Program-made: the position numbers and the translations under genes
Shown: piece after piece, positions 862 to 21,311 of the stretch
Layout of the letters: every line of letters begins with the position of its first letter
How positions within the stretch are numbered: position 1 is the stretch's first letter
Notes under the pieces: model-generated
Databases searched by the model: none
Told to the model about the DNA's origin: nothing
Seen by the model: the letters and a program-made list of their open reading frames with translations, nothing else
Source: Escherichia coli
GTDB taxonomy: Bacteria > Pseudomonadota > Gammaproteobacteria > Enterobacterales > Enterobacteriaceae
DNA length: 64,000 bases
Reading direction: 5' to 3' (one strand)
Assembly: GCF_003334305.1 (NCBI RefSeq)
Contig: NZ_QOWS01000003.1

Positions 862-3009
862 TTACGCCAGTGCCGCTTCGCGCAGGCGAGTTTTCAACTT
901 GTTGTACTCGTCAATCACGTACTGCTCGGCGGCGCGCTGATCGGCGATCGGCTCGACGCGCACGGCGCAGTATTTGTATTCCGGCGTTTTCGTAATCGGG
1001 CTTAAGTTTTCGGTAACCAGCTCGTTACAGGCACCAATCCACCACTGGTAGGTCATGTAAATCGCCCCTTTGTTCGGACGATCGCTGACCTGCGCACGGG
1101 TGATAATTTTGCCTTTACGCGAGTGCACCCAAACCAATGCCTCATCTTCAATACCCAGACGTTTGGCGTCTTCGGTATTGATTTGTGCGTAGCCAGGTTC
1201 ATCAGCCAGCGCCGCCAGTGCCGCACAGTTACCGGTCATCGAACGGCAAGAGTAGTGACCAACTTCACGCACCGTTGACAGTACCATCGGGTACTCGTCG
1301 GTGAGTTTGTCGATTGGCGCTACCCAGTCGCAGGTGAAGAACTGTGCCAGACCGTTCGGGGTATCAAACTTCTCTTTAAACAGATAAGAAGTCCCCTGAT
1401 CGGCATCTGAAGTATCGCGGCAAGGCCACTGAATGAAGCCCAGTTCGCCCATTTTCTCGTAAGTCGCACCGTAGAAATCCGGGCACAGATGACGCAACTC
1501 ATCCCAGATCTCCTGGGTGTTGTTGTAGTGCATCGGATAACCCATACGGGTGGCGATTTCACTGATGATTTGCCAGTCCGTTTTCAGATCCCATTTCGGT
1601 TCAACTGCTTTGAAGAAACGCTGGAAGCCACGGTCAGCCGCAGTAAACACGCCTTCATGCTCGCCCCACGACGTTGACGGCAAAATGACATCCGCCGCCG
1701 ACGCGGTTTTGGTCATAAAGATGTCCTGAACGATAACCAGTTCCAGATCTTCAAAGGCTTTACGTACTGCCGACAGCTCCGCGTCAGTTTGCAGCGGATC
1801 TTCGCCCATAATGTACGCGGCACGCACTTCGCCATGCGCTGCGCGGTGCGGCAGCTCGCTGATGCGATAACCGGTATGAGCAGGCAGGCTTTCCACGCCC
1901 CAGGCTTTGGCGAATTTCTCGCGGTTAGCCGGATCTTTCACGTACTGGTATCCCGGATACGTATCCGGCAGCGCGCCCATATCGCAGGCACCCTGCACGT
2001 TGTTCTGACCACGAACCGGGTTTACACCCGCATGCGGCTTACCGAGGTTACCGGTCAGCATCGCGAGGCTGGTCAGAGAACGCACGGTTTCCACGCCCTG
2101 GTAGAACTGGGTTACACCCATGCCCCACAGGATGGCGGCGCTTTTCGCCTGGGCATACATCCGTGCCGCCTGACGAATCTCACTGGCGCTGACGCCGGTG
2201 ATATCTTCAACCGACTCCGGCGTGTAGCCTTCAACGATTTTACGATACTCTTCAAAGCCTTCTGTACGGGAAGCGACGAACGCTTTGTCGTACAGATTTT
2301 CTTCAATAATGACATGGCCCATCGCATTCAACAGCGCGATGTTCGAGCCGTTTTTCAGTGCAATGTGCATGTCAGCAATGCGCGCGGTTTCAATTTTGCG
2401 CGGATCGCAGACGATAATTTTCGCCCCGTTACGTTTAGCGTTAATTACGTGATTCGCCACGATTGGGTGGGAATCCGCCGGGTTGTACCCGAAAACGAAC
2501 ACTAAATCGGTATTATCAATTTCGTTAATAGCATTGCTCATTGCGCCATTACCGACCGATTGGTGCAGACCTGCAACCGATGGGCCGTGTCAGACACGAG
2601 CGCAGCAGTCAACGTTATTGGTACCAATAACGGCGCGCGCAAATTTTTGCATTACATAGTTGGTTTCGTTACCCGTACCACGCGAGGAGCCGGTCGTCTG
2701 GATGGCATCCGGACCGTACTTCTCTTTGATGGCGCTCAGGCGCTCGGCAACGTAATTCAGTGCCTCATCCCAGGAAACAGGTTCGAGTTTGCCGCCACGC
2801 TGGCGACGGATCATGGGGGTTTTCAGGCGCGGGGTCAGGATCTGGGTATCGTTAATGAAATCCCAGCCATAATAACCCTTCAGACACAGGGTACCCTGGT
2901 TGGTTTTCCCCTGCGCTGCCTCCGCCCGGACGATTTTGCCGTTATCGACGACCAGGTTGATTTTGCAACCTGATGCGCAATAGGGGCAAACCGTGACGAC
3001 TTTTTTCAT
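862..3009 (-). CDS. fdhF: formate dehydrogenase H (715 aa), selenocysteine-containing; in-frame TGA at 2590-2592 decoded as Sec
   Basis: ORF-track segments 2590-3009 and 862-2541 are in the same frame and separated only by one TGA; N-terminal CPYCASGCK Fe-S motif; SECIS hairpin directly 3-prime of the TGA. Confidence 0.95.
2548..2589 (-). other. SECIS selenocysteine-insertion stem-loop inside fdhF
   Basis: mRNA reads UGA-CACGGCCCAUCGGUUGCAGGUCUGCACCAAUCGGUCGGUAAUGGCG, the classical fdhF SECIS. Confidence 0.88.
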
Positions 3010-8254: not shown

Positions 8255-10240
8255 TTAATTTGGGGTTACGATATTCACCCACAAATCGAAATTATCCAGA
8301 CAGGCGATAATTTCTTCCAGTTTCGCGCCATTGCCAATAATTTTGGCTTTCTTCGCTTTTACCAGATCCGCCATTTTGGCTTGCCCGGTCAGCACGGCGT
8401 GCAGATCTTCACGGCTGATGTAGAAAGAGGCGTCAGCTTGGGATTGCAGTGTTTTACGGTAGTTAAGCACGCTATCGTTCAGCGTCAGGTTGAGGTTATC
8501 GCCATTGCTCATATTGAAGTTCAGGCTGATATTTTTACCCGCGGCTTTCGCGCTATCGAGGCGAACGGACATAAAGTCGAACAGCATTTCGACCGACATC
8601 CCGCGAATGGTGTCCGGGGAACCGGTGGTGCCGTGGCTGAACTTATGCACCCCTTCGCGCAGCTCTTTCGCGCCGGTCAGGTAGAAACCGCGCCAGGTGG
8701 CGGACTCGGCCTGATAGCCCAGCTGTTCAAAGTTATTCGCTTGCAGATTCTTCGCGACCTGGTCACCCGGGTTGGCGGCAATCACCTGTTTCAGCAGTTC
8801 TGCCGACCAGCGGTAATCACCTTGCTTGTTCGCTTCTTGCGCCAGGTTGATGACACGGGCAGAACCGCCCAGCGCCTGCACGTAACGTTTACCCATCTCC
8901 ACCTGACCATACGGATGCAGGTTAGCCGGGTTACCGTCGTAATAGCCAAGATAGAAGTTATACACCGCGCGGGCGTTGTGGCTGACAGAACCGTAATAGC
9001 CACGGCTGGCCCAGTTATTGGCAAGTGCAGGCGGCAGTTTAATCATGTCGCCGATTTCATTCATGGTGTAGCCCTGGTTCGCCAGGTGCAGGGTCTGGTC
9101 GTGAATGTACTTGATAGTATCGCGATATTTACCAATATAATCATTGATATGCTTATTGCCCCAGACCGGCCAGGTGTGCGGCATAAACAGGACTTCCGCG
9201 TCGTTACCCCACATATCCAGCGTTTCGTTCAGATACTCGGTCCACTTGCTGGTGTCGCGGGTTTTCGCGCCGCGCAGAGTGTAGAAGTTGTGCAGGGTAT
9301 GCGTGGCGTTCTCGGCGGTACACAGGGCTTTCAGGGCCGGAATATAGAAGTGCATTTCGGCTGGCGCTTCGCTACCTGGGGTCATCAGGAAGTCAAACTC
9401 CAGGCCGTCGATAATCATCTTCTCACCGGTTTTGGTGATGGTTTTGTTCGGTGCGATGATGCTCGGGTAGCCCGATGCCAGCGTTACGCCAAGACCATTG
9501 CCGATGTTACCCTGAGGGTTATGCGCCAGCAGCAGGCCGTAGGAGTAAAGTGCACGGCGGCTCATAATATTACCCGCCAGTACGTTTTCGCTGATGGCTT
9601 CGTCCATAAAGCCAGCAGGGGCGATAACCTGCACTTTACCGGATTTCACATCAGCTTCAGAGATAATGCCTTTCACGCCGCCATAGTGGTCGGTATGGCT
9701 GTGGGTATAAATAACCGCAACAATCGGTTTTTGCGGGCGATTTTGGAAGTAAAGGTCAAGGGCGGCTTTTGCGCTCGGTGGCGTCACCAGCGGGTCGATG
9801 ACAATAATCCCGGTATCACCTTCGATAAAGGTGATGTTGGAGATATCCTGACCGCGAACCTGGTACATTCTGTCGGTGACTTTAAACAAGCCGGAAATAC
9901 CGTTTAACTGCGACTGACGCCACAGGCTAGGGTTAACGGTTTCGGGCGCGGGCGCATTGATATCAAATTTATAATCTTCCCCGCGATAATATGGTTTGCC
10001 ATTAGCATCGCGCAGAATACCTTCATCCAGCAGCGGAGCGATAAATCCACGCTGAGCGTCGTCAAAATCCTGACGATCGCTAAACGGTAATGATTTGGCG
10101 TAATTCTGATTAACCTGTTGGGTATATTGAGTGGCGGCTTTCGCTTCATCTGTTGCGTAAGCGGTATTTACCATCATGCCGCTGGCGGCAGTTAACGCAA
10201 TAACAATTCTGCTCAAACGGAATAACCGAGAGTTATTCAT
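8255..10240 (-). CDS. yjcS: alkyl/aryl sulfatase, metallo-beta-lactamase fold, secreted
   Basis: 661-aa ORF from the second ATG (GGAG 6 nt upstream); signal peptide; [10 protein letters not shown] metal-binding motif. Confidence 0.9.
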
Positions 10241-10492
10241 ATAAATCTCCATTTATCATTTATGTCGTAAATATGTAATCCATGCAAAATACGTCATTTA
10301 AAGCTGGGGTTATCATAATTGGGAATTTGCGACTTTAATAAGTGGAAGTGTGAGCGGAACGATCCATTTTATTAGGCATTTGTGCTGAAGGGGGAAAATT
10401 ACGCGAATTTATTATCTCTGTAAATAATATGAGGTGTTTTATATATTTATTATATATATTGTACTTCGGCAAATACTGAGCACAATTTATCA

Positions 10493-10810
10493 ATGCAACC
10501 GGTGTTTCTTTTTAAAAAACGTACCGGAGCAATGGGCGGTCATGTCGCTGGCACCGCAGGATTCTGCGTTGCTGTGCCAGCCTTTTATTCATGGTCAATG
10601 AGTGAGGTGATTGATAAAGACACCAGGTCGTCAGAGCGCACTGATTATCCGCATTATGCCAGTGAAGTTGCACTGGCTTTTGGTTCACGAGTGGTTGGCC
10701 TCGAACTGGCAAAAATGATTGTGGATGCGTGGCTGGGCGCACAGTACGAAGGCGGTCGTCATCAACAACGCGTGGAGGCGATTACGGCAATAGAGCAGCG
10801 GAGAAATTGA
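10493..10810 (+). pseudogene. rpiB: remnant of ribose-5-phosphate isomerase B (rpiB), N-terminally replaced and internally deleted
   Basis: residues from about 10604 onward read EVIDKDTRSSERTDYPHYASEVALA then FGSRVVGLELAKMIVDAWLGAQYEGGRHQQRVEAITAIEQRRN, which I recognise as the N-proximal and C-terminal parts of E. coli RpiB (about 149 aa) with the ICGTGVG catalytic segment missing; sits directly upstream of yjdP as rpiB does in K-12. Confidence 0.55.
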
Positions 10811-10878
10811 GATTCATCCACTACTTGCATGGATGAGTAATGACTAATGTGGATAGAGTTTCTTTTTGAGGTTGGCTA

Positions 10879-11208
10879 ATGAAACGCTTTCCGCTATTTC
10901 TTTTATTCACCCTGCTCACGCTGTCCACCGTTCCGGCCCAGGCTGATATTATCGACGATACTATTGGTAATATTCAGCAGGCGATTAATGACGCTTATAA
11001 CCCTGACCGTGGGCGAGACTATGAAGATTCGCGCGACGACGGCTGGCAGCGTGAAGTGAGCGACGATCGGCGCAGACAATATGACGACCGCCGCCGCCAG
11101 TTTGAAGATCGCCGCAGGCAGCTGGACGATCGCCAGCGCCAGCTTGATCAGGAGCGTCGGCAACTGGAGGATGAAGAGCGGAGAATGGAAGATGAGTATG
11201 GGCGATGA
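10879..11208 (+). CDS. yjdP: small secreted protein with acidic/RRQ-rich repeats
   Basis: 109-aa ORF with signal peptide MKRFPLFLLFTLLTLSTVPAQA and DDRRRQ repeat-rich C-terminus. Confidence 0.85.
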   Translation: MKRFPLFLLFTLLTLSTVPAQADIIDDTIGNIQQAINDAYNPDRGRDYEDSRDDGWQREVSDDRRRQYDDRRRQFEDRRRQLDDRQRQLDQERRQLEDEERRMEDEYGR

Positions 11209-11354: not shown

Positions 11355-12113
11355 TCACGCCACCCCAATCTCCATCCCATCAAACCCCACCTCAAACCCT
11401 GACGGTAGTGCGTTTTCCATCAGCCACGCATCAAACTGGTGGCTGATATGGGTCAGAATCACCTGTGGCGAGCGGATAACCTGATTCAGCGCAAGCACGG
11501 TATTTAAATCACAGTGATTACGCGGTGCATCCGCGCGCGGCGGGTGACTGCAATCAATCACCATCACCTGCGGATGATTATTGAGTAAAAATTTCAGCGT
11601 TTTTTCCGGCAGGCCAGCGGTGTCAGACAGCCACGCCACCCGGCTATGTGCCGTTTCCAGCAGATAACCGAAGGTCAGTTTTGAGTGGTTAAGCGGCAGC
11701 GGCGTGACCTGCAACCCCTGCAAATCAAACACCACAAACGGTTCCACTGTGTGGCTGAAATCAAGCAGGCCCGGATGTTTAAACAGATCGTCGCAGCCCT
11801 GTTCATCCGGCGGGCCGTAGACCGGGATCACATCGCCCACGCCCCAGCGTAGCGGAAATAGCCCCTGGACGTGATCCATATGGTAGTGCGTCAGCAAAAA
11901 CTGCTGGAACGATCCAGGCGACCAGCGATCGGTGAGATCGTGCCGCCCGGCGTCGATCAGGGTGATCGCGTCGTTAAACTTCACTACGCCGCTGCATGGC
12001 TGGCGGCGATACTGCGGCGAGCGCCGCGCTCTGGCGCAGGCCGCGCACTCGCAGCCCCATGCCGGAACGCCCTGTGCGCCGCCAGTGCCGGTGAGCGTGA
12101 GGGTCAGGCTCAT
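11355..12113 (-). CDS. phnP: phosphoribosyl 1,2-cyclic phosphate phosphodiesterase (metallo-beta-lactamase fold)
   Basis: 252-aa protein from the internal Met ([15 protein letters not shown]); HYHMDH metal motif; last gene of the phn operon. Confidence 0.92.
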
Positions 12114-12114
12114 G

Positions 12115-12549
12115 TTACAGCGCCTTGGTGAAGCGGAAGTGGCTCTGCTCGTAGCCTTCACGCAGGTAAAAACGGTGTGCGTCGTGGCGCTTCACGTTGG
12201 TGGAAAGCTCGGTCATTTCGGCCCCGGCCTGGCGGGCTTCTTCTTCTGCCCATGCCAGTAATTTACTGCCGACGTTCAGACCGCGCGCCTGCGGCATCAC
12301 CACCAGTTCCTGAATTTCGCCGATCCAGTTGACATGATGCAGATGAAACTGCAAATGCAGGCCGATCATGCCGACAACTTCGCCATCCAGCAGCGCCAGA
12401 TGGTAGCGCATGTTTGGGTCGCGCAGGTTGGCGTTAAAGCCCACGCGAAACGCATGGTGGTCAAACTCCGCCTGTTTTAGCTCACAAATCAGCGCGTAAA
12501 CCGCGTCGGTATCGTACTGCGTGGCCGGGCGAAGCTCACAAGCAGGCAT
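12115..12549 (-). CDS. phnO: aminoalkylphosphonate N-acetyltransferase (GNAT)
   Basis: 144-aa ORF; its stop is 1 nt from the phnP start. Confidence 0.92.
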
Positions 12550-13093
12550 GGTGTTTCTCCTTCTGATGGATCAGCGTCAGCAGCGTGTCGACCGACTGGC
12601 GCAGGCTGCCGTCATTGTTGAGCGTATGGCAATCCTGTGGAGTATAGCGGGCGGCGCGCGCCAGGCGGGCGTTAATTTCACTGGCGTTTTCACGGCCACG
12701 GTTTTCCAGGCGCTGGCGCAGGATCTCCGGCGAAACCTGTAAACAGACGGGCAGCAGCGCCGATTGATAGCGCGCCCGTGCCTGCGGCAAATGCGCGCGT
12801 GAACCGTTGACGACTACGTCGAATCCAGCGTGCAGCCAGAGGTCAATCTCGATGCCGACGCCATAATACAGACCGTTAGCGTGCCAGCTTAAGGCCAGCA
12901 GGTTTTGCCCCGCGCGGGTAAAAAACTCCCGCTCACTCAGGGCGATATGGTTTTCACTTCCGGCGCTGGCGTCGCGCGTGATGTAGCGATGCGCCACCAG
13001 TAACTGCGTTTGTTCCCGCAGGCGGAGTTCCGCCAGCAGGCTGTCTTTCCCGGAGCCGGACGGCCCCATTAACCAAATCAGTTTTCCCATCAT
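12536..13093 (-). CDS. phnN: ribose 1,5-bisphosphate phosphokinase
   Basis: 185-aa ORF with P-loop GPSGSGKDS; overlaps phnO. Confidence 0.92.
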
Positions 13094-14229
13094 CAGAACA
13101 CCCTTTTACCCTGACGCCAGACGTGGTCGATATGAATGTGATTGCCCTGGCGATGCGCCAGCACCAGGTCAGCGCGTTTACCCTCGCCAATCACCCCGCG
13201 ATCCTGAAGATTCAGCGCCTGCGCCGGATTTTTGGTCACCAGCCTCACCGCCTGCGGTAGCGTAAAGCGGTTGCTCTCGTCATCGGCGACGCGGAACGCC
13301 GCATCCAGCAGGCTGGCTGGGTAGTAGTCGGAAGAGAGGATATCCAGCAGACCAAGCTGCGCCAGTTCACTGGCCGCCACATTGCCGGAGTGCGAGCCGC
13401 CACGCACGATATTTGGCGCACCCATCAGCACGTTCATGCCATGCTTACGCGAGGCTTCCGCCGCTTCGAACGTGGTGGGAAATTCGGCGATCACGCTGCC
13501 AAGTTGGTGGGATTCGGCAACGTGGGCGTGCGTGGCGTCATCGTGGCTGGCGAGCGCAATTTGTCGCGCGCGGCACAGGGCGGCGATGGATTCGCGATTC
13601 GGCTGCGACCAGCGTGCGGCGAGCGCCAATTGCTCTTCTTCGTACTGCTGCATCTGCGCATCGGTGAGGGAGTATTTGCCCTGATAATATTCGCGATACT
13701 TCTCGCGGTTAGCGAACTGGCGCTGGCCCGGTGAGTGGTCCATCAGCGACACCAGCGTCACCGGTTCGCGCTGAACCAGTTTTTCAAACAGCGGCAGTGT
13801 GGTGTGATGCGGCAGCTCGCAGCGCAGGTGCAGACGGTGCTCGGCGCGGTTGACGCCGCGTTTCTGCGTCTCTTCGATGGTGTTGATCATCTTCTCCAGA
13901 TTCTCCAGCCGATCGCCGCCGTCGCGCACGTCGCCAATCGCCACCGCGTCCAGCACGGTGGTGATGCCGCTTGCCACCATCAGCGCGTCGTGGCTGCTCA
14001 TCGCCGAATGGGCGGGCCAGTCGACTTTCGGGCGCGGGGTGAAGAATTTATCGAGGTTGTCGGTATGCAGCTCAATCAGGCCGGGTAGTAGCCAGCCACC
14101 TTCGCCGTCCATCGCTTCTGGCAGGCGGCTCTGGCTTTCGGCAAAGGCGCGGATTTCGCCATCCTGCACCTCCAGCGAACCGTGTACCACTTCGTTTTCC
14201 AGCACCAGTTTGACGTTATTGATAATCAT
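13093..14229 (-). CDS. phnM: amidohydrolase-family RPnTP diphosphatase
   Basis: 378-aa ORF; overlaps phnN and phnL. Confidence 0.92.
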
Positions 14230-14906
14230 GCAGAGGCTCCCATTGGGTGCAAGCGGTCGGCGACGTCATTACGTACAGCTTCGTCATGGAAGATGCCTAC
14301 GATGGCTGCGCCACGGGTTTTGGCTTCGCGAATCAGTTCCACCACCGCGGCGCTGTTTTTGGCGTCCAGCGAGGCGGTAGGTTCGTCAAGCAGCAGAATG
14401 GGGTAGTCGACGATAAAGCCGCGGGCGATGTTGACGCGCTGCTGTTCGCCACCGGAAAATGTCGATGGTGCCAGGTGCCACAGGCGTTCCGGCACGTTCA
14501 GGCGGGTGAGCAGACGCGCGGCTTTAGCGGCGCAGGCTTCACGCGGAACGCCGGTATCGAGCAGCGGCTGCATCACCACTTCCAGTGCTGAAATACGCGG
14601 GATGACGCGCAGAAACTGGCTCACCCAGCCGACGGTGGTTTTGCGGATCTCCACCACTTTGCGGGCTGGCGCGGTGACCAGGTCTACCCACTCGTCACCG
14701 TGTTTGATCTGGATTTGACCTTCATCGGGCAGATAGTTGGCGTACAGCGAGCGCAGCAGGGTTGATTTGCCGCTGCCGGAGTGACCGTGGAGCACCACGC
14801 ATTCGCCCGCGTTGACGGTGAGCGAGGCGCGGTTGAGGACGGGCAGGCGCACGCCGTTTTGCTGGTGCAGGATGAAGGTTTTACTGACGTTTTGTACGTT
14901 AATCAT
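14226..14906 (-). CDS. phnL: C-P lyase ATP-binding component
   Basis: 226-aa protein from the internal Met [11 protein letters not shown]; Walker [10 protein letters not shown]. Confidence 0.9.
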
Positions 14907-14925
14907 TTTTCGCCTCGTGGTTCGG

Positions 14926-15011
<86 letters not shown>

Positions 15012-15016
15012 CCGGC

Positions 15017-15775
15017 TCAATTCTGCAAAACCGATGACACCAGCAGCTGTGTATACGGATGATGCGGGTCGTCGAGCACGCGGTCGGTTAACCCACTCTC
15101 CACCACTTGCCCCTGCTTCATCACCAGCAAACGGTCCGCCAGCAGGCGGGCGACGCCTAAATCATGGGTGACAATCACCACCGCGAGGTTCAGCTCCACC
15201 ACCAGGCCGCGCAGCAGGTCGAGCAGGCGGGCCTGCACCGACACATCCAGCCCGCCGGTCGGTTCATCCATAAACACCAGCTTCGGATGCGTCACCAGGT
15301 TGCGGGCAATCTGCAAACGCTGCTGCATACCGCCGGAAAAGGTGGTCGGCAGGTCGTCGATCCGGTTGGCGGGAATCTCCACCTCTTCCAGCCACTTCTG
15401 CGCGGTGGCGCGAATGTCGCCGTAATGACGCGCCCCGGTCGCCATCAACCGCTCGCCGATATTGCCGCCTGCCGAGACCTGACGGCGCAGGCCGTCGAGT
15501 GGATGCTGATGCACTACGCCCCATTCGGTGCGCAGCAGGCGACGGCGGTCGGCCTCGCTCATTGCATACAGCGAACGGTTCTCGTAGTGAATCTCCCCCT
15601 GCTGCGGCGTCAGACGCGCGGAGATCGACTTCAGCAGCGTGGTCTTCCCGGAGCCGGATTCTCCGACAATGCCCAGCACTTCTCCCGGCCATAAATCAAA
15701 AGAGACATCGCTAAAGCCTTTGCCCGGCGCGTAAAGGTGGGTCAGGTTATTGACCGAAAGTAACGGTTTATTCAT
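15017..15775 (-). CDS. phnK: C-P lyase ATP-binding component
   Basis: 252-aa protein from the internal Met [11 protein letters not shown]; Walker [10 protein letters not shown]; ATGA overlap with phnJ stop. Confidence 0.9.
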
Positions 15776-16617
15776 TGGCTTTTCGCCTCGCTCTGTTGGC
15801 GGCAATAATCGGTATCGGAGCAGACAAACATGCGGTTTCCGGCGTCATCCAGCACCACTTCATCAAGATAGCTGTGGGTCGATCCGCAGATGGCGCATGG
15901 CTCATCCCACTGCTGAACGGTGAACGGGTGATCGTCGAAATCGAGACTTTCCACGCGGGTAAACGGCGGCACCGCATAGATGCGCTTCTCGCGCCCTGCG
16001 CCGAACAGCTGCAGGGCGGGCATCATGTCCATTTTCGGGTTATCGAATTTCGGGATCGGCGACGGGTCCATCACGTAGCGCCCGTTCACCTTCACCGGAT
16101 AAGCATAGGTGGTGGCGATATGACCGAAGCGGGCGATATCTTCATACAGTTTCACCTGCATCACGCCGTACTCCTCCAGCGCGTGCATAGTGCGGGTCTC
16201 CGTTTCGCGCGGCTCGATAAAGCGCAGCGGTTCCGGGATTGGCACCTGGAAGATAATGATCTGATCTTCGGTCAGCGGCGTTTCGGGGATGCGGTGACGC
16301 GTCTGGATAAGCGTCGCATCGTCCGTACGTTCAGTGGTGTTTACCCCGGTCACGCGCTTAAAGAAGTTGCGAATCGACACGGCGTTGGTGGTGTCATCCG
16401 CACCCTGGTCAATCACCTTCAACACGTCGCTTTCGCCAATCACGCTGGCGGTGAGCTGAATGCCGCCGGTTCCCCAGCCGTAGGGCATCGGCATCTCGCG
16501 CCCGCCAAACGGCACCTGATAACCGGGGATAGCCACCGCTTTTAAGATGGCGCGGCGGATCATGCGTTTGGTCTGCTCGTCGAGGTAGGCAAAGTTGTAG
16601 CCGCTCAGATTAGCCAT
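15772..16617 (-). CDS. phnJ: C-P lyase catalytic subunit
   Basis: 281-aa protein from the internal Met MANLSGYNFAYLDEQTKR; C-terminal CxxCxxxxxC cysteine cluster. Confidence 0.9.
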   Translation of the reverse strand: MANLSGYNFAYLDEQTKRMIRRAILKAVAIPGYQVPFGGREMPMPYGWGTGGIQLTASVIGESDVLKVIDQGADDTTNAVSIRNFFKRVTGVNTTERTDDATLIQTRHRIPETPLTEDQIIIFQVPIPEPLRFIEPRETETRTMHALEEYGVMQVKLYEDIARFGHIATTYAYPVKVNGRYVMDPSPIPKFDNPKMDMMPALQLFGAGREKRIYAVPPFTRVESLDFDDHPFTVQQWDEPCAICGSTHSYLDEVVLDDAGNRMFVCSDTDYCRQQSEAKSQ

Positions 16618-17674
16618 GGTTCTGCTCCTGTTGCAGACGTTTGAGTAGCTCCAGTTCGGCCTGGAAATCGACGTAGTGCGGGAGTTTGAGGTGCGAGACA
16701 AAGCCTGCGGCTTCGACGTTGTCGGCATGTGCCAGCACAAACTCTTCATCCTGCGCCGGGCCTGTCGCGTGCTCGCCGTATTCCGGAGCCTGCAACGCAC
16801 GATCGACCAGCGCCATTGCCATCGCTTTGCGCTCGCTCATGCCGAATACCAGCCCGTAGCCGCGCGTGAAGTGCGGCGGCTCATCCGGCGGGTCGATAAA
16901 ACCGTTGACCATTTCACACTCGGTCATCAGTAGTTCGCCGACGTTTACCGCAAATCCCAGCTCTTCCGGCACAATCGACACGTCGATGTAACCACTGCGG
17001 ATCTCGCCCGCGAACGGGTGATTGCGTCCGTAACCACGCTGGGTGGAGTAGGCCAGCGCCAGCAAATAGCCTTCGTCCCCGCGCATTAATTGTTGCAGGC
17101 GGGAGGAGCGTGAGCAGGGGTAAACCGGCGGCGTGCGGGTGATGTCATCCGGCTGTGCGCCGCTATCTTCTTCAAACTTCGCCAGCCCCTGACGCGCCAG
17201 CAGGCTGAAAACGTGCGGCGACGGCTGTTGTTCGCTGTCGGCGGTGGTCAGCGTCGGCGCTTCGCCGTTTGCCAGCAGGGTGAAATCGAGCAGGCGATGG
17301 GTGTAGTCGTAGGTTGGGCCAAGCAACTGACCGCCGGGAATATCTTTATAAACCGCTGAAATACGCCGTTCGAGACGCATCTCCGTGGTGTCGAGCGGCT
17401 CGCTTACCGCCAGCTTCGCCAGCGTGGTGCGGTAGGCGCGTAGCAGGAAAATCGCTTCGACGTTATCGCCGCTGGCCTGTTTCAGCGCCAGCGCCGCCAG
17501 TTCGCGGTCGGCAATGCCGCCTTCGGTCATCACGCGATCTACTGCAAGATTAAGCTGCTGTTCAATCTGGGCGACGCTCAGTTCAGGCAAATCGGTATTG
17601 CCCCGGCGTCGGCTCTCTTGCAGGGCGTGGGCGGCGTCGATCGCCTTCTCGCCCCCTTTCACGGCAACGTACAT
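16610..17674 (-). CDS. phnI: C-P lyase core component
   Basis: 354-aa protein from the internal Met [13 protein letters not shown]; ATGA overlap with phnH. Confidence 0.9.
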   Translation of the reverse strand: MYVAVKGGEKAIDAAHALQESRRRGNTDLPELSVAQIEQQLNLAVDRVMTEGGIADRELAALALKQASGDNVEAIFLLRAYRTTLAKLAVSEPLDTTEMRLERRISAVYKDIPGGQLLGPTYDYTHRLLDFTLLANGEAPTLTTADSEQQPSPHVFSLLARQGLAKFEEDSGAQPDDITRTPPVYPCSRSSRLQQLMRGDEGYLLALAYSTQRGYGRNHPFAGEIRSGYIDVSIVPEELGFAVNVGELLMTECEMVNGFIDPPDEPPHFTRGYGLVFGMSERKAMAMALVDRALQAPEYGEHATGPAQDEEFVLAHADNVEAAGFVSHLKLPHYVDFQAELELLKRLQQEQNHG

Positions 17675-18258
17675 CAGCACACCTCCACATGAGTGGTTCG
17701 CGGGATAGCCAGCAGCCGCTCGCCGCAGGTCAGGATCAGGTCGATGCCGAGCGGGAACGGGTGCGGGCGCTCGGTGAGTTCGTGCAGAATGCACTCCGGC
17801 AGCTGCGGAGCGATCATTCGTTCTTCGGCAATACCCGCGCCAGTAAGGCGCAGCATGCGCCCGCCGCTCAGGCTGGCGACCTGTAAAATCAGCGTTGCAC
17901 CCGCTTCCGGCGCAACGGCGGTGCCGGTGGAAAGGGCGTTAAGCTGTTCGCTGGAAATCGCCTCATCCGTCACCGCGAAGGTCGCCTGTTCCGGCTGGCT
18001 GACCAGCGGCGCGTTGGTATGAAAACGCAGGCTCTGGCTGACGATATCGTTACTCAATGGCGCGGCAAGCCACACCGGCGTGTCGTTATCGGCCAGCGTC
18101 AGCAGCACGCTGGTGGTGGCGATATTCAGCGGCTGCCAGCCGCGCTTGAGCTGATGCAGGGCGACAATCACGCCCGGCTCGCTCATGGCCTTTAACAGGC
18201 GACGAAAACTGTGCTGGGCATCCTGCACGGGAAGCATAAAAGCGGTTTCCAGGGTCAT
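17674..18258 (-). CDS. phnH: C-P lyase core component
   Basis: 194-aa ORF; overlaps phnI and phnG. Confidence 0.9.
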
Positions 18259-18707
18259 GCGTTGTCTCCGCGAACCATCGTAAAGAAGTCGACCCGGCTG
18301 GCGTTCACTTCGGCCTGGCGTGCGGCAATGCGTGCCATACGGTCAGCGTCCAGCGGGGCAATAAGGGTTTCTGATAAGTTTTGAAAATAGCGAGATTGCT
18401 GCATCAGCGCGTCAATCAGCGCGCAGCGTTCGGCGTGCTGTTTGTCGCGCCCCAGCACCCAGCTGTAGCCGAGCGTGCCGTCAGTCAGGCGTACGGCGGC
18501 GCGGGTGAGCGTGGCGTCGCCGGCAAAAAAGCGTTCGCCGGTGCCGCCCATCCGCGCCTGAATCTGCACCAGGCCGGTTTCGGCGGCGCGGATAACCTCA
18601 TAGTCGGCGGTGATGTTCAGTGCTTTCAGGCGGGCTGCCAGTTCAGCCGGTTGGCTGTGCGCCAGTACGGACATCCAGTGCTGGCGGGTCGCGGTATCTG
18701 CGTGCAT
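18255..18707 (-). CDS. phnG: C-P lyase core component
   Basis: 150-aa ORF directly after phnF. Confidence 0.9.
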
Positions 18708-19433
18708 TCAGTGCTCCATAGTGAATTCAATCATGTCGGCGCGCGTCAGGCTGACGGAGTACTCCGCCGGGCTGCTTTCACCGTCACGGTGGTTAAGGGT
18801 GCGCACGCACAGCAGCGGCGACATATTCGGAATTTCAAGACGCTGGCACTCTTTGGCCTGGGCGCGACGGGCGCTGATCCGCGTCTGGCTGCGGCGCAGC
18901 GCAATTCCGGTTTGCTCGCGCAGAAAATCGTGCAGCGAACCGCTGTCGAAACGTTGCAGTGTCGGCCAGAGGGTGAGGTCCGCAAAGTAGTGGTCGATTA
19001 AACAGAGCGCGATGCCGTTGACCCGGCGCAGGGTGCGCAGGTGGATGACGTTCTCCCCCTCGGTTATCCCCAGCGCGTCAGCGACGTGACCAGATGCCGG
19101 GCGCAGCACCGACAGCAGTTTTTCGCTGGTGGGATGGCTGCCCTGATCCAGCAGGTTCTGGCTAAAACGCGCCTGGGCGTTGAGCGGGTAATCGAACGGG
19201 CGCATCAGCACCAGCACGCCGACGCCCTGACGGCGCTGTACCCAGCCTTTTTCCACCAGTTGGTCGATGGCGCGGCGCAGGGTGTGGCGGTTCACCTCAA
19301 AGCGCGCCGCCAGTTGCTGCTCGGCGGGAAGATAGTCGCCGCAGCGGTAGTGTTGACGAAGCTCCTGCTCAAGTTTTGCGGCTATCTCCTGATAGCGTGT
19401 TGGGTAGCTGGTCGGATGTGTAGACAAGTGCAT
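18708..19433 (-). CDS. phnF: GntR-family repressor of the phn operon
   Basis: 241-aa protein from the internal Met MHLSTHPTSYPTRYQEIA; N-terminal wHTH and C-terminal UTRA-like domain. Confidence 0.9.
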   Translation of the reverse strand: MHLSTHPTSYPTRYQEIAAKLEQELRQHYRCGDYLPAEQQLAARFEVNRHTLRRAIDQLVEKGWVQRRQGVGVLVLMRPFDYPLNAQARFSQNLLDQGSHPTSEKLLSVLRPASGHVADALGITEGENVIHLRTLRRVNGIALCLIDHYFADLTLWPTLQRFDSGSLHDFLREQTGIALRRSQTRISARRAQAKECQRLEIPNMSPLLCVRTLNHRDGESSPAEYSVSLTRADMIEFTMEH

Positions 19434-19453: not shown

Positions 19454-20233
19454 TCAGATAAAGTGCTTACGCAACCGTTGAGAGAGGAAATCCAGCAGGC
19501 TGACCGTGACGATGATAAGCACCATCAGGGCGCAGGTTTGCTGGAACTGGAAACCGCGAATCGCTTCCCACAGGGTGACGCCGATCCCGCCTGCACCGAC
19601 CATGCCGACGACGGTCGCCGAGCGGACGTTGGATTCGAAGCGATAGAGGGAGTAGGAGATCAGCAGCGGCATTACCTGTGGCAGCACGCCGTAAAGGATC
19701 TCTTCCAGCTTGTTGGCGCCGGTGGCGCGAATGCCTTCCACCGGGCCGGGTTCAATCGCTTCCACCGCTTCGGAAAGCAGTTTCGAGAGCACGCCGGTGG
19801 TGTGAATAAATAGCGCCAGCACGCCAGCGAACGGTCCGAGACCGACGGCGACCACGAACAGCATGGCGAAGACCATTTCGTTAATGGCGCGGCAGGCGTC
19901 CATCAGGCGGCGAACGGGCTGGTAAACCCACCACGGCACCAGGTTTTCGGCGCTCATCAGGCCGAAGGGGATGGAGAGAACCACTGCCAGCGCGGTGCCC
20001 CAGACGGCGATTTGCAGCGTGACGGCCATTTCGGTGAGGTAATCCTGCCACTGGCTGAAATCGGGCGGGAAGAAGTCGGCAGCGAAGGTTGCCATGTTGC
20101 CGCCGTCTTTAATCAGCGTAAGCGGGGCCATTTCCGCGCCCTGCCACGAGACGACCAGCACGGCGAGAACAACGGCCCAGCTCAGAAGCGAGAACCAGCT
20201 ACGCTTGGATGGGGCGATGGTGATGGTTTGCAT
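19454..20233 (-). CDS. phnE: phosphonate ABC transporter permease, uninterrupted
   Basis: single 259-aa polytopic ORF with no frameshift. Confidence 0.9.
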
Positions 20234-20251
20234 GTTTGGCTCCGTTTAATG

Positions 20252-20294
20252 TTTTCTCCCTCTCCCTCAAGGGAGAGGGGACCGATCGAGCACA
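20252..20294. repeat. copy of GC-rich palindromic repeat (boxC-like) between phnE and phnD
   Basis: TTCTCCCTCTCCCTCAAGGGAGAGGGGACCGATCGAGCACA; its reverse complement matches the 11231-11333 element (GGGAGAGGGAGAAAAC and CGAGCACAATCGGTCCCCTC segments). Confidence 0.5.
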
Positions 20295-21311
20295 TTACTG
20301 CACCGCTTTACTCACCGAACTCATCGCGCTTAACGCGTTGTTCAGGCGGTCCAGGTCATCCAGCTGCGCCTGAATCTCGGTGGTTTTCGCCAGCTTGTCC
20401 TGCTCATTCAGTCCTTTATTGCTTTTTACGCCCTGCATCTCTTTAAACAGTGCGAGCTGGCGAATCGGCACCAGTTGCAGGTCGCTGGAGGCGCGGAACG
20501 GGGCCCAGCCCAGGCGTTCCAGCACCGCTTTCTCTTCCGGCGTTTTTCCGTAGTTCATAAAGAAGTCGTAGATCTTGTCTTTGGTGGTTTCGGAGAGATT
20601 CTTGCGCCAGACGATCGGATCGCCTGGGATCAGCGGCGACTTCCAGATCATCTTCAGTTCTTTCAGCTTCTCTGGCGCGGAGGTTTTCAGCTTGTCGAGG
20701 TTTTCGGTGTTGTTGGTGGCAACATCCACCTGCTTGTTGGCGACGGCCAGCGCGTTGGTTTCATGCCCAGCGTTGACGGTGCGCTTAAAGTCGCTGGCGG
20801 AGATATTGTTTTTGGCAAAGACGTAGTAACCGGGGACGAGGAAGCCAGAGGTGGAGTTAGGATCGCCATTGCCGAAGGTGAGATCTTTCCGCTTCGCCAG
20901 CAGATCGTTCAGGTTGTTGATCGGACTATCTTTGTTGACGATCAACACGCTCCAGTAACCTGGCGATCCATCCGCCGCGACCGTCTGGGCGAAGACCTGG
21001 CCGTTGGCGCGATCCACCGCTTCCATTGCCGACAGGTTGCCGTACCAGGCGATATCCACTTTATTGAAGCGCATTCCCTGGATAATGCCTGCGTAGTCTG
21101 GGGCAAAGAAGGCGTTCACCTTCACGCCCAGCTTCTTCTCCATATCCTGTAAGAATGGCGTCCATTGCGGTTTCAGGTTTTGCTGTGATTCCGTTGAAAT
21201 AATGCCGAAATTCAGCGCCTTTTCCTGCTCTTCGGCGTGTGCCGGGCTTAACAGGGTGCTGAGGCTGAACATGCTGGTGAAGGCCAGCGAGGCAATTATC
21301 TTAGCGTTCAT
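20295..21311 (-). CDS. phnD: phosphonate ABC transporter periplasmic binding protein
   Basis: 338-aa ORF with signal peptide. Confidence 0.92.
   Translation of the reverse strand: MNAKIIASLAFTSMFSLSTLLSPAHAEEQEKALNFGIISTESQQNLKPQWTPFLQDMEKKLGVKVNAFFAPDYAGIIQGMRFNKVDIAWYGNLSAMEAVDRANGQVFAQTVAADGSPGYWSVLIVNKDSPINNLNDLLAKRKDLTFGNGDPNSTSGFLVPGYYVFAKNNISASDFKRTVNAGHETNALAVANKQVDVATNNTENLDKLKTSAPEKLKELKMIWKSPLIPGDPIVWRKNLSETTKDKIYDFFMNYGKTPEEKAVLERLGWAPFRASSDLQLVPIRQLALFKEMQGVKSNKGLNEQDKLAKTTEIQAQLDDLDRLNNALSAMSSVSKAVQ

Follow-up and report, generated by a model that had tools for sequence, protein, structure and literature searches.

An intact two-unit phnE allele in a complete phn operon of Escherichia coli predicts phosphonate use without prior mutation

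Among the closest described counterparts of the locus reported here are the phnE gene of Escherichia coli K-12 MG1655 (pseudogene b4583) and the phnE+ revertants obtained from K-12. A K-12 derivative that had lost exactly one GCTGGCGT unit from a tandem 8-bp repeat regained transport through PhnCDE (Stasi, Neves and Spira 2019, PMC6469041), and phnE+ revertants of K-12, which originate by slippage, are readily selected on phosphonate (PMC6469041). The PhnCDE importer takes up orthophosphate as well (PMC6469041). In K-12, expression of phnC depends on PhoB, with phnC RNA at 32,470 in the wild type versus 13 in a phoB deletion strain (PMC10294691). Among five Pho promoters, that of phnC showed the highest off-rate of PhoB~P and the latest onset (Gao and Stock, PMC4447250), and its PhoB site had the lowest affinity of the five tested (PMC4447250).

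We analysed a stretch of 64,000 bases of E. coli DNA (hereafter the window), in which the phn genes lie on the minus strand. Its phnE is, with a probability of about 93%, an ordinary functional allele within a complete phnCDEFGHIJKLMNOP operon on the E. coli chromosome. Strain A7, isolated from orangutan faeces (NZ_CP028767.1, 388932-452931), is 100.000% identical to the window over all 64,000 bases, ungapped, and its RefSeq record annotates the identical phnE ORF as intact (WP_001193509.1), with no difference from the window. An 18-kb stretch around the phn operon also occurs at about 100% identity in several further isolates from humans, a chicken and an echidna. The intact phnE described here is already known biology, its sequence being already deposited and annotated in RefSeq. 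The practical value of the analysis lies in a correct functional call: the strain should use phosphonates, and import phosphate through PhnCDE, without prior reversion, and K-12 is not the reference state for phnE.

The phnE gene, whose product is the permease of the phosphonate/phosphate ABC importer PhnCDE, occupies 19454..20233 on the minus strand. As the initial annotation had proposed, it is an uninterrupted ORF of 259 amino acids, with one ATG-started frame of 259 codons and a single stop (TGA) at its end. Nucleotide alignment with K-12 MG1655 located two tandem 8-bp units, GCTGGCGT and GCTGGCGC (GCTGGCGY), at 19813..19828 on the minus strand, within codons 136-141. Where K-12 MG1655 reads GCTGGCGT-GCTGGCGT-GCTGGCGC, the window reads GCTGGCGT-GCTGGCGC, and these 8 bp are the sole length difference between the two alleles within phnE. 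The expectation that the repeat would prove single-copy in this strain was therefore wrong, the alignment giving two copies in the window and three in K-12. The same alignment, which could have brought out an overlooked frameshift, showed that the K-12 frameshift is absent and that the frame stays open to codon 259. Both features of a functional in-frame allele are consequently present, namely two rather than three GCTGGCGY copies and an open frame over the whole gene.

When the K-12 gene is read from the ATG that both alleles share, the frame shifts after codon 141 and meets a stop at codon 190. The EAA-type cytoplasmic coupling loop starts at residue 155, 3' of the repeat tract, and the K-12 product would thus be deprived of this loop and of the C-terminal membrane helices. 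Removal of one unit from the K-12 sequence in silico restored a protein of 259 residues which differs from that of the window by a single substitution, P9S (proline in K-12, serine in the window). The two genes share their place in the 14-gene operon and their promoter; besides the third 8-bp unit, they are distinguished by 28 further single-base differences. The K-12 phnE+ revertants (e.g. RI57, PMC6469041) are in the same two-copy state as the window and encode a 259-residue PhnE differing at residue 9 only; they result from unit loss in the laboratory, whereas the allele of the window is natural and lies on a different SNP background. It is chiefly the recovery of PhnCDE transport by K-12 revertants with one unit lost (PMC6469041) that leads us to call the window allele functional, and transport of phosphonate by its PhnE can be expected because it shares 258/259 residues with the repaired K-12 form found in those revertants.

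The protein itself conforms to this reading. PhnE is identical to WP_001193509.1, the annotated phnE product of strains A7 and 503025, and scores 310.9 bits against the NCBIfam equivalog TIGR01097 (curated cut-off 216.7), the match spanning profile positions 8-251 of 252 and the runner-up family reaching only 38.5 bits. A PF00528 (BPD_transp_1) domain covers residues 88-258 (E = 5.6e-26). The strict EAA-x3-G-x9-I-x-LP pattern had no match in PhnE, the loop being a looser variant; the PF00528 domain together with this loose EAA-type loop places PhnE among the type I ABC importer permeases. The gene context agrees with its identity as PhnE: phnC (ATPase) and phnD (binding protein) are its neighbours and the C-P lyase genes lie downstream. 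A sequence search of the PDB found no structure of PhnE. The closest solved structure by sequence was MetI, the permease of the methionine ABC importer (PDB 3dhw, 6cvl; E = 6e-6 over PhnE residues 125-254), which shares with PhnE the fold family of type I ABC importer permeases (PF00528) but is a distant relative with another substrate.

Upstream of phnE, a GGAG ribosome-binding site stands 7 nt 5' of the ATG. It is part of a 61-nt phnD-phnE spacer (20234..20294, minus strand) that also contains a hairpin with an 11-bp stem, formed by the palindrome CCCTCTCCCTTGAGGGAGAGGG (20258..20279, minus strand), which occurs once in the whole window. The spacer folds at -24.3 kcal/mol (z-score -3.4). The corresponding K-12 spacer is unrelated, with 105 nt and a REP pair folding at -50.5 kcal/mol. 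A structured element between the genes of the binding protein and the permease recalls the malE-malF arrangement and might bear on the phnD:phnE expression ratio. In RefSeq, the K-12 pseudogene begins at an ATG located 51 nt 5' of the conserved start (9232..9282 of the compared MG1655 segment). This longer start was considered for the window and rejected, as the ATG sits in the K-12-specific REP spacer, which is absent here; without a counterpart for it in the window, the start giving 259 codons is the conserved one.

The other genes of the operon were compared by tblastn with the 13 corresponding K-12 Phn proteins, which gave end-to-end, ungapped matches. The statement that all 14 phn genes are intact was borne out: the 13 genes besides phnE are full-length, each beginning with one ATG and ending in its only stop, and their products are 97.2-100% identical to those of K-12. 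In the order phnC-phnD-phnE-phnF-phnG...phnP, all on the minus strand, the operon comprises phnC (21336..22124), encoding the ATPase subunit of 262 residues (98.9% identity to K-12, with the Walker A motif GPSGSGKS and the LSGGQ signature); phnD (20295..21311), encoding the periplasmic phosphonate-binding protein of 338 residues (99.7%, full length, ungapped); phnE; phnF (18708..19433), encoding the GntR-type repressor of the operon, 241 residues (99.6%); and the ten C-P lyase pathway genes phnGHIJKLMNOP (11355..18707), all intact. Identities to K-12 within this last group are 98.0% for PhnG, 97.9% for PhnH, 99.2% for PhnI, 99.3% for PhnJ, 99.6% for both PhnK and PhnL, 97.9% for PhnM, 98.4% for PhnN, 100% for PhnO and 97.2% for PhnP.

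The genes had also been described as tightly coupled. This applies to most of the 13 junctions, nine to ten of them either overlapping by 1-14 nt or separated by 0-1 nt: phnF-G (gap 0 nt), phnG-H (overlap 4 nt), phnH-I (overlap 1 nt), phnI-J (overlap 8 nt), phnJ-K (overlap 4 nt), phnL-M (overlap 4 nt), phnM-N (overlap 1 nt), phnN-O (overlap 14 nt) and phnO-P (gap 1 nt). Gaps of 24 nt and 20 nt separate phnC-D and phnE-F. The description fails for phnD-E and for phnK-L, with 61 nt and 110 nt respectively, and both of these wide spacers fold as stable hairpins. The phnK-phnL spacer (14907..15016) is a REP pair folding at -60.7 kcal/mol (z-score -7.3); the same junction measures 176 nt in strain AMA1167 versus 110 nt in the window, and the length of this spacer hence varies between strains.

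An intact phnE could nevertheless reside in a strain unable to use phosphonates, owing to a missense change in a C-P lyase protein or to a lesion beyond the window, in phoBR or elsewhere. Compared with K-12, there are 50 amino-acid substitutions over the 13 other Phn proteins, for instance 8 in PhnM and 7 in PhnP, although none affects the functional residues checked, which are a subset of those that matter. PhnJ retains G32, C241, C244, C266 and C272, which we take, from work of the Raushel laboratory, to be its radical and Fe-S residues, and the Walker A motifs are retained in PhnC, PhnK and PhnL. Moreover, none of the 13 proteins is truncated and their identity to those of K-12 is 97-100%; the K-12 operon is functional as soon as phnE has been restored. 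The exact 18-kb segment is found at 100% identity in several unrelated isolates, as expected of a maintained operon. The phoBR genes sit outside the window and beyond its reach, and a Phn-positive phenotype would also hinge on them. On balance we regard a Phn-negative strain as improbable. A native Phn-positive phenotype, i.e. growth on phosphonates without prior mutation, is well supported as a prediction from the sequence of the operon.

The region upstream of phnC points in the same direction. The 131 nt 5' of the phnC ATG (22125..22255) are identical to K-12, and a SNP at 22256, just beyond them, is the sole difference in the aligned stretch. They include the PhoB-binding region CTGTTAGTCACTTTTAATTAACCAAATCGTCACA (22201..22168, minus strand), itself identical to K-12, whose downstream 18 nt, ATTAACCAAATCGTCACA (22185..22168, minus strand), correspond to the motif reported for the ChIP-seq peak of PhoB at MG1655 position 4325211 (PMC10294691). 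A scan of the whole 64-kb window for the textbook Pho box consensus CTGTCATAWAWCTGTCAY with up to three mismatches returned no site. The upstream half of CTGTTAGTCACTTTTAATTAACCAAATCGTCACA, CTGTTAGTCACTTTTAAT, is presumably the classical Pho box of Makino et al. 1991. The consensus scan was dropped as evidence because the phnC site is too degenerate, and identity with the K-12 promoter and the published ChIP-seq data were used instead. The Pho box announced upstream of phnC is accordingly there by identity to the PhoB site mapped in K-12, but not by the consensus. The 131-nt promoter identity, inclusive of the ChIP-seq motif, would make the operon a member of the Pho regulon. Just upstream of the phn promoter region, the yjdN-yjdM spacer contains a match to the Rfam family naRNA4/CssrE, a nucleoid-associated, REP-derived RNA (22765..22842, minus strand; 87.5 bits for a gathering score of 59.5).

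Given the steps established in K-12 and the near-identity of the two operons, a common course of events may be proposed for the strain of the window. Under phosphate starvation, PhoB~P would bind 40-80 nt upstream of phnC and drive transcription of all 14 genes. PhnD would then capture phosphonate in the periplasm, PhnE would provide the membrane channel, coupled to the PhnC ATPase through the EAA-type loop, and PhnG-P would finally break the C-P bond. The reading frame of phnE is set by the number of repeat units at codons 136-141, two units yielding the full permease of 259 residues and three, as in K-12, or four yielding a frameshift. Replication slippage can add a unit to the tract or remove one, and the ON state of the window is therefore heritable yet reversible in principle.

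Allelic variation of this tract was explored across complete E. coli genomes, 5395 of 5426 of which possess phnE. Two units are found in the window, in A7-like strains and in AMA1167, three in MG1655 and four in TB4328. A 31-nt probe that cannot seed on fewer than three tandem units matched 1014 records from 1012 of the 5426 genomes (18.7%) and, among the matches listed, all chromosomal ones fell inside phnE. Many of the listed matches are K-12 laboratory derivatives, and most of 40 sampled matches are isolates from humans, pigs, chickens and sewage, including NCTC86. The alignment above bore out the extra 8-bp unit that was said to disrupt the cryptic phnE of K-12, but K-12 shares the cryptic allele with many natural isolates. 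Since 18.7% of the genomes have three or more copies, most of the remaining ones carry an in-frame phnE: the intact gene is the usual state, in some four out of five sequenced E. coli, and the window is ordinary in this respect. The four-unit allele belongs to the chicken-meat isolate TB4328 (NZ_AP038823.1; 607..638 of the compared segment), in which phnE is 796 nt long and annotated as frameshifted, and it shows that the tract expands in nature past the K-12 state.

These alleles raise the question of whether the tract of two copies is a phase-variable switch, in which case the assembly would represent the majority state of a heterogeneous strain with a three-copy OFF subpopulation. Complete genomes include alleles of 2, 3 and 4 copies, reversion from three to two copies by slippage is easily selected in K-12 (PMC6469041), and reversible phase variation is the subject of Iqbal et al. 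2004, as cited in PMC6469041. The association of copy number with flanking SNPs was evaluated with a synthetic 55-nt query carrying three copies within the window's own flanking SNPs. With this query, 998 records fell in the identity band of 90-95%, as K-12-type flanks would give, and a further 16 in the intermediate band of 95-99%; the class at 99% or above was contaminated, overlapping pieces of two-copy alleles having been joined into apparent full-length matches of 100%. As 998 and 16 already add up to the 1014 records with three or more copies, no such record remains, by this indirect argument, for the flanking haplotype of the window. This distribution speaks against a switch in this strain, as does the fact that two 8-mer copies are a weak substrate for slippage compared with classical contingency loci, and we consider a mixed population to be the least credible of the readings weighed here, with hardly any weight attached to it.

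The concentration of the OFF allele almost wholly on one flanking haplotype suggests, if only indirectly, that it is mostly inherited within one lineage and not repeatedly regenerated. That the copy number serves across E. coli as a naturally used on/off switch, with about a fifth of complete genomes OFF (3 or 4 copies), appears very doubtful. Should it hold true, an ON allele could flip to OFF where PhnCDE is costly, for example through uptake of toxic phosphonate or phosphate analogues, the strain-specific phnD-phnE spacer (a hairpin in the window, but a REP pair in K-12) might additionally adjust the dosage of the permease, and the novelty would be limited to the use of the switch at the population level, the basic phnE switch being known and reportedly described in 2004 by Iqbal and colleagues. 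The figure of 18.7% of complete genomes with three or more copies, nearly all of them on flanking SNPs of the K-12 type, may help those who model phosphorus metabolism from K-12.

Several other features were observed in the window away from the phn operon. The D-allose operon alsRBACEK, with a length of about 6.8 kb in AMA1167, is missing at 10253..10880. A remnant of rpiB persists there as an ORF of 105 residues (10493..10810, plus strand) with a foreign N-terminus, without RpiB residues about 62-105 and with the C-terminal 45 residues intact; RefSeq still names it 'RpiB/LacA/LacB family sugar-phosphate isomerase'. A match to the Rfam family of the sRNA STnc630 (28509..28674, plus strand, 178.5 bits) extends over both the short pmrR ORF (28578..28667) and, on the other strand, the 3' end of pmrB. 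A frameshifted remnant of a tyrosine-type integrase, 160 nt long (58657..58816, from the A7 annotation), adjoins a tRNA-Phe gene (59017..59089, minus strand) within the region 58657..59089, and has the appearance of a scar left by an island that had integrated at pheU. Finally, the SECIS element of fdhF (Rfam SECIS_2; 2543..2597, minus strand, 87.1 bits) is present, in keeping with the selenocysteine that formate dehydrogenase H contains.
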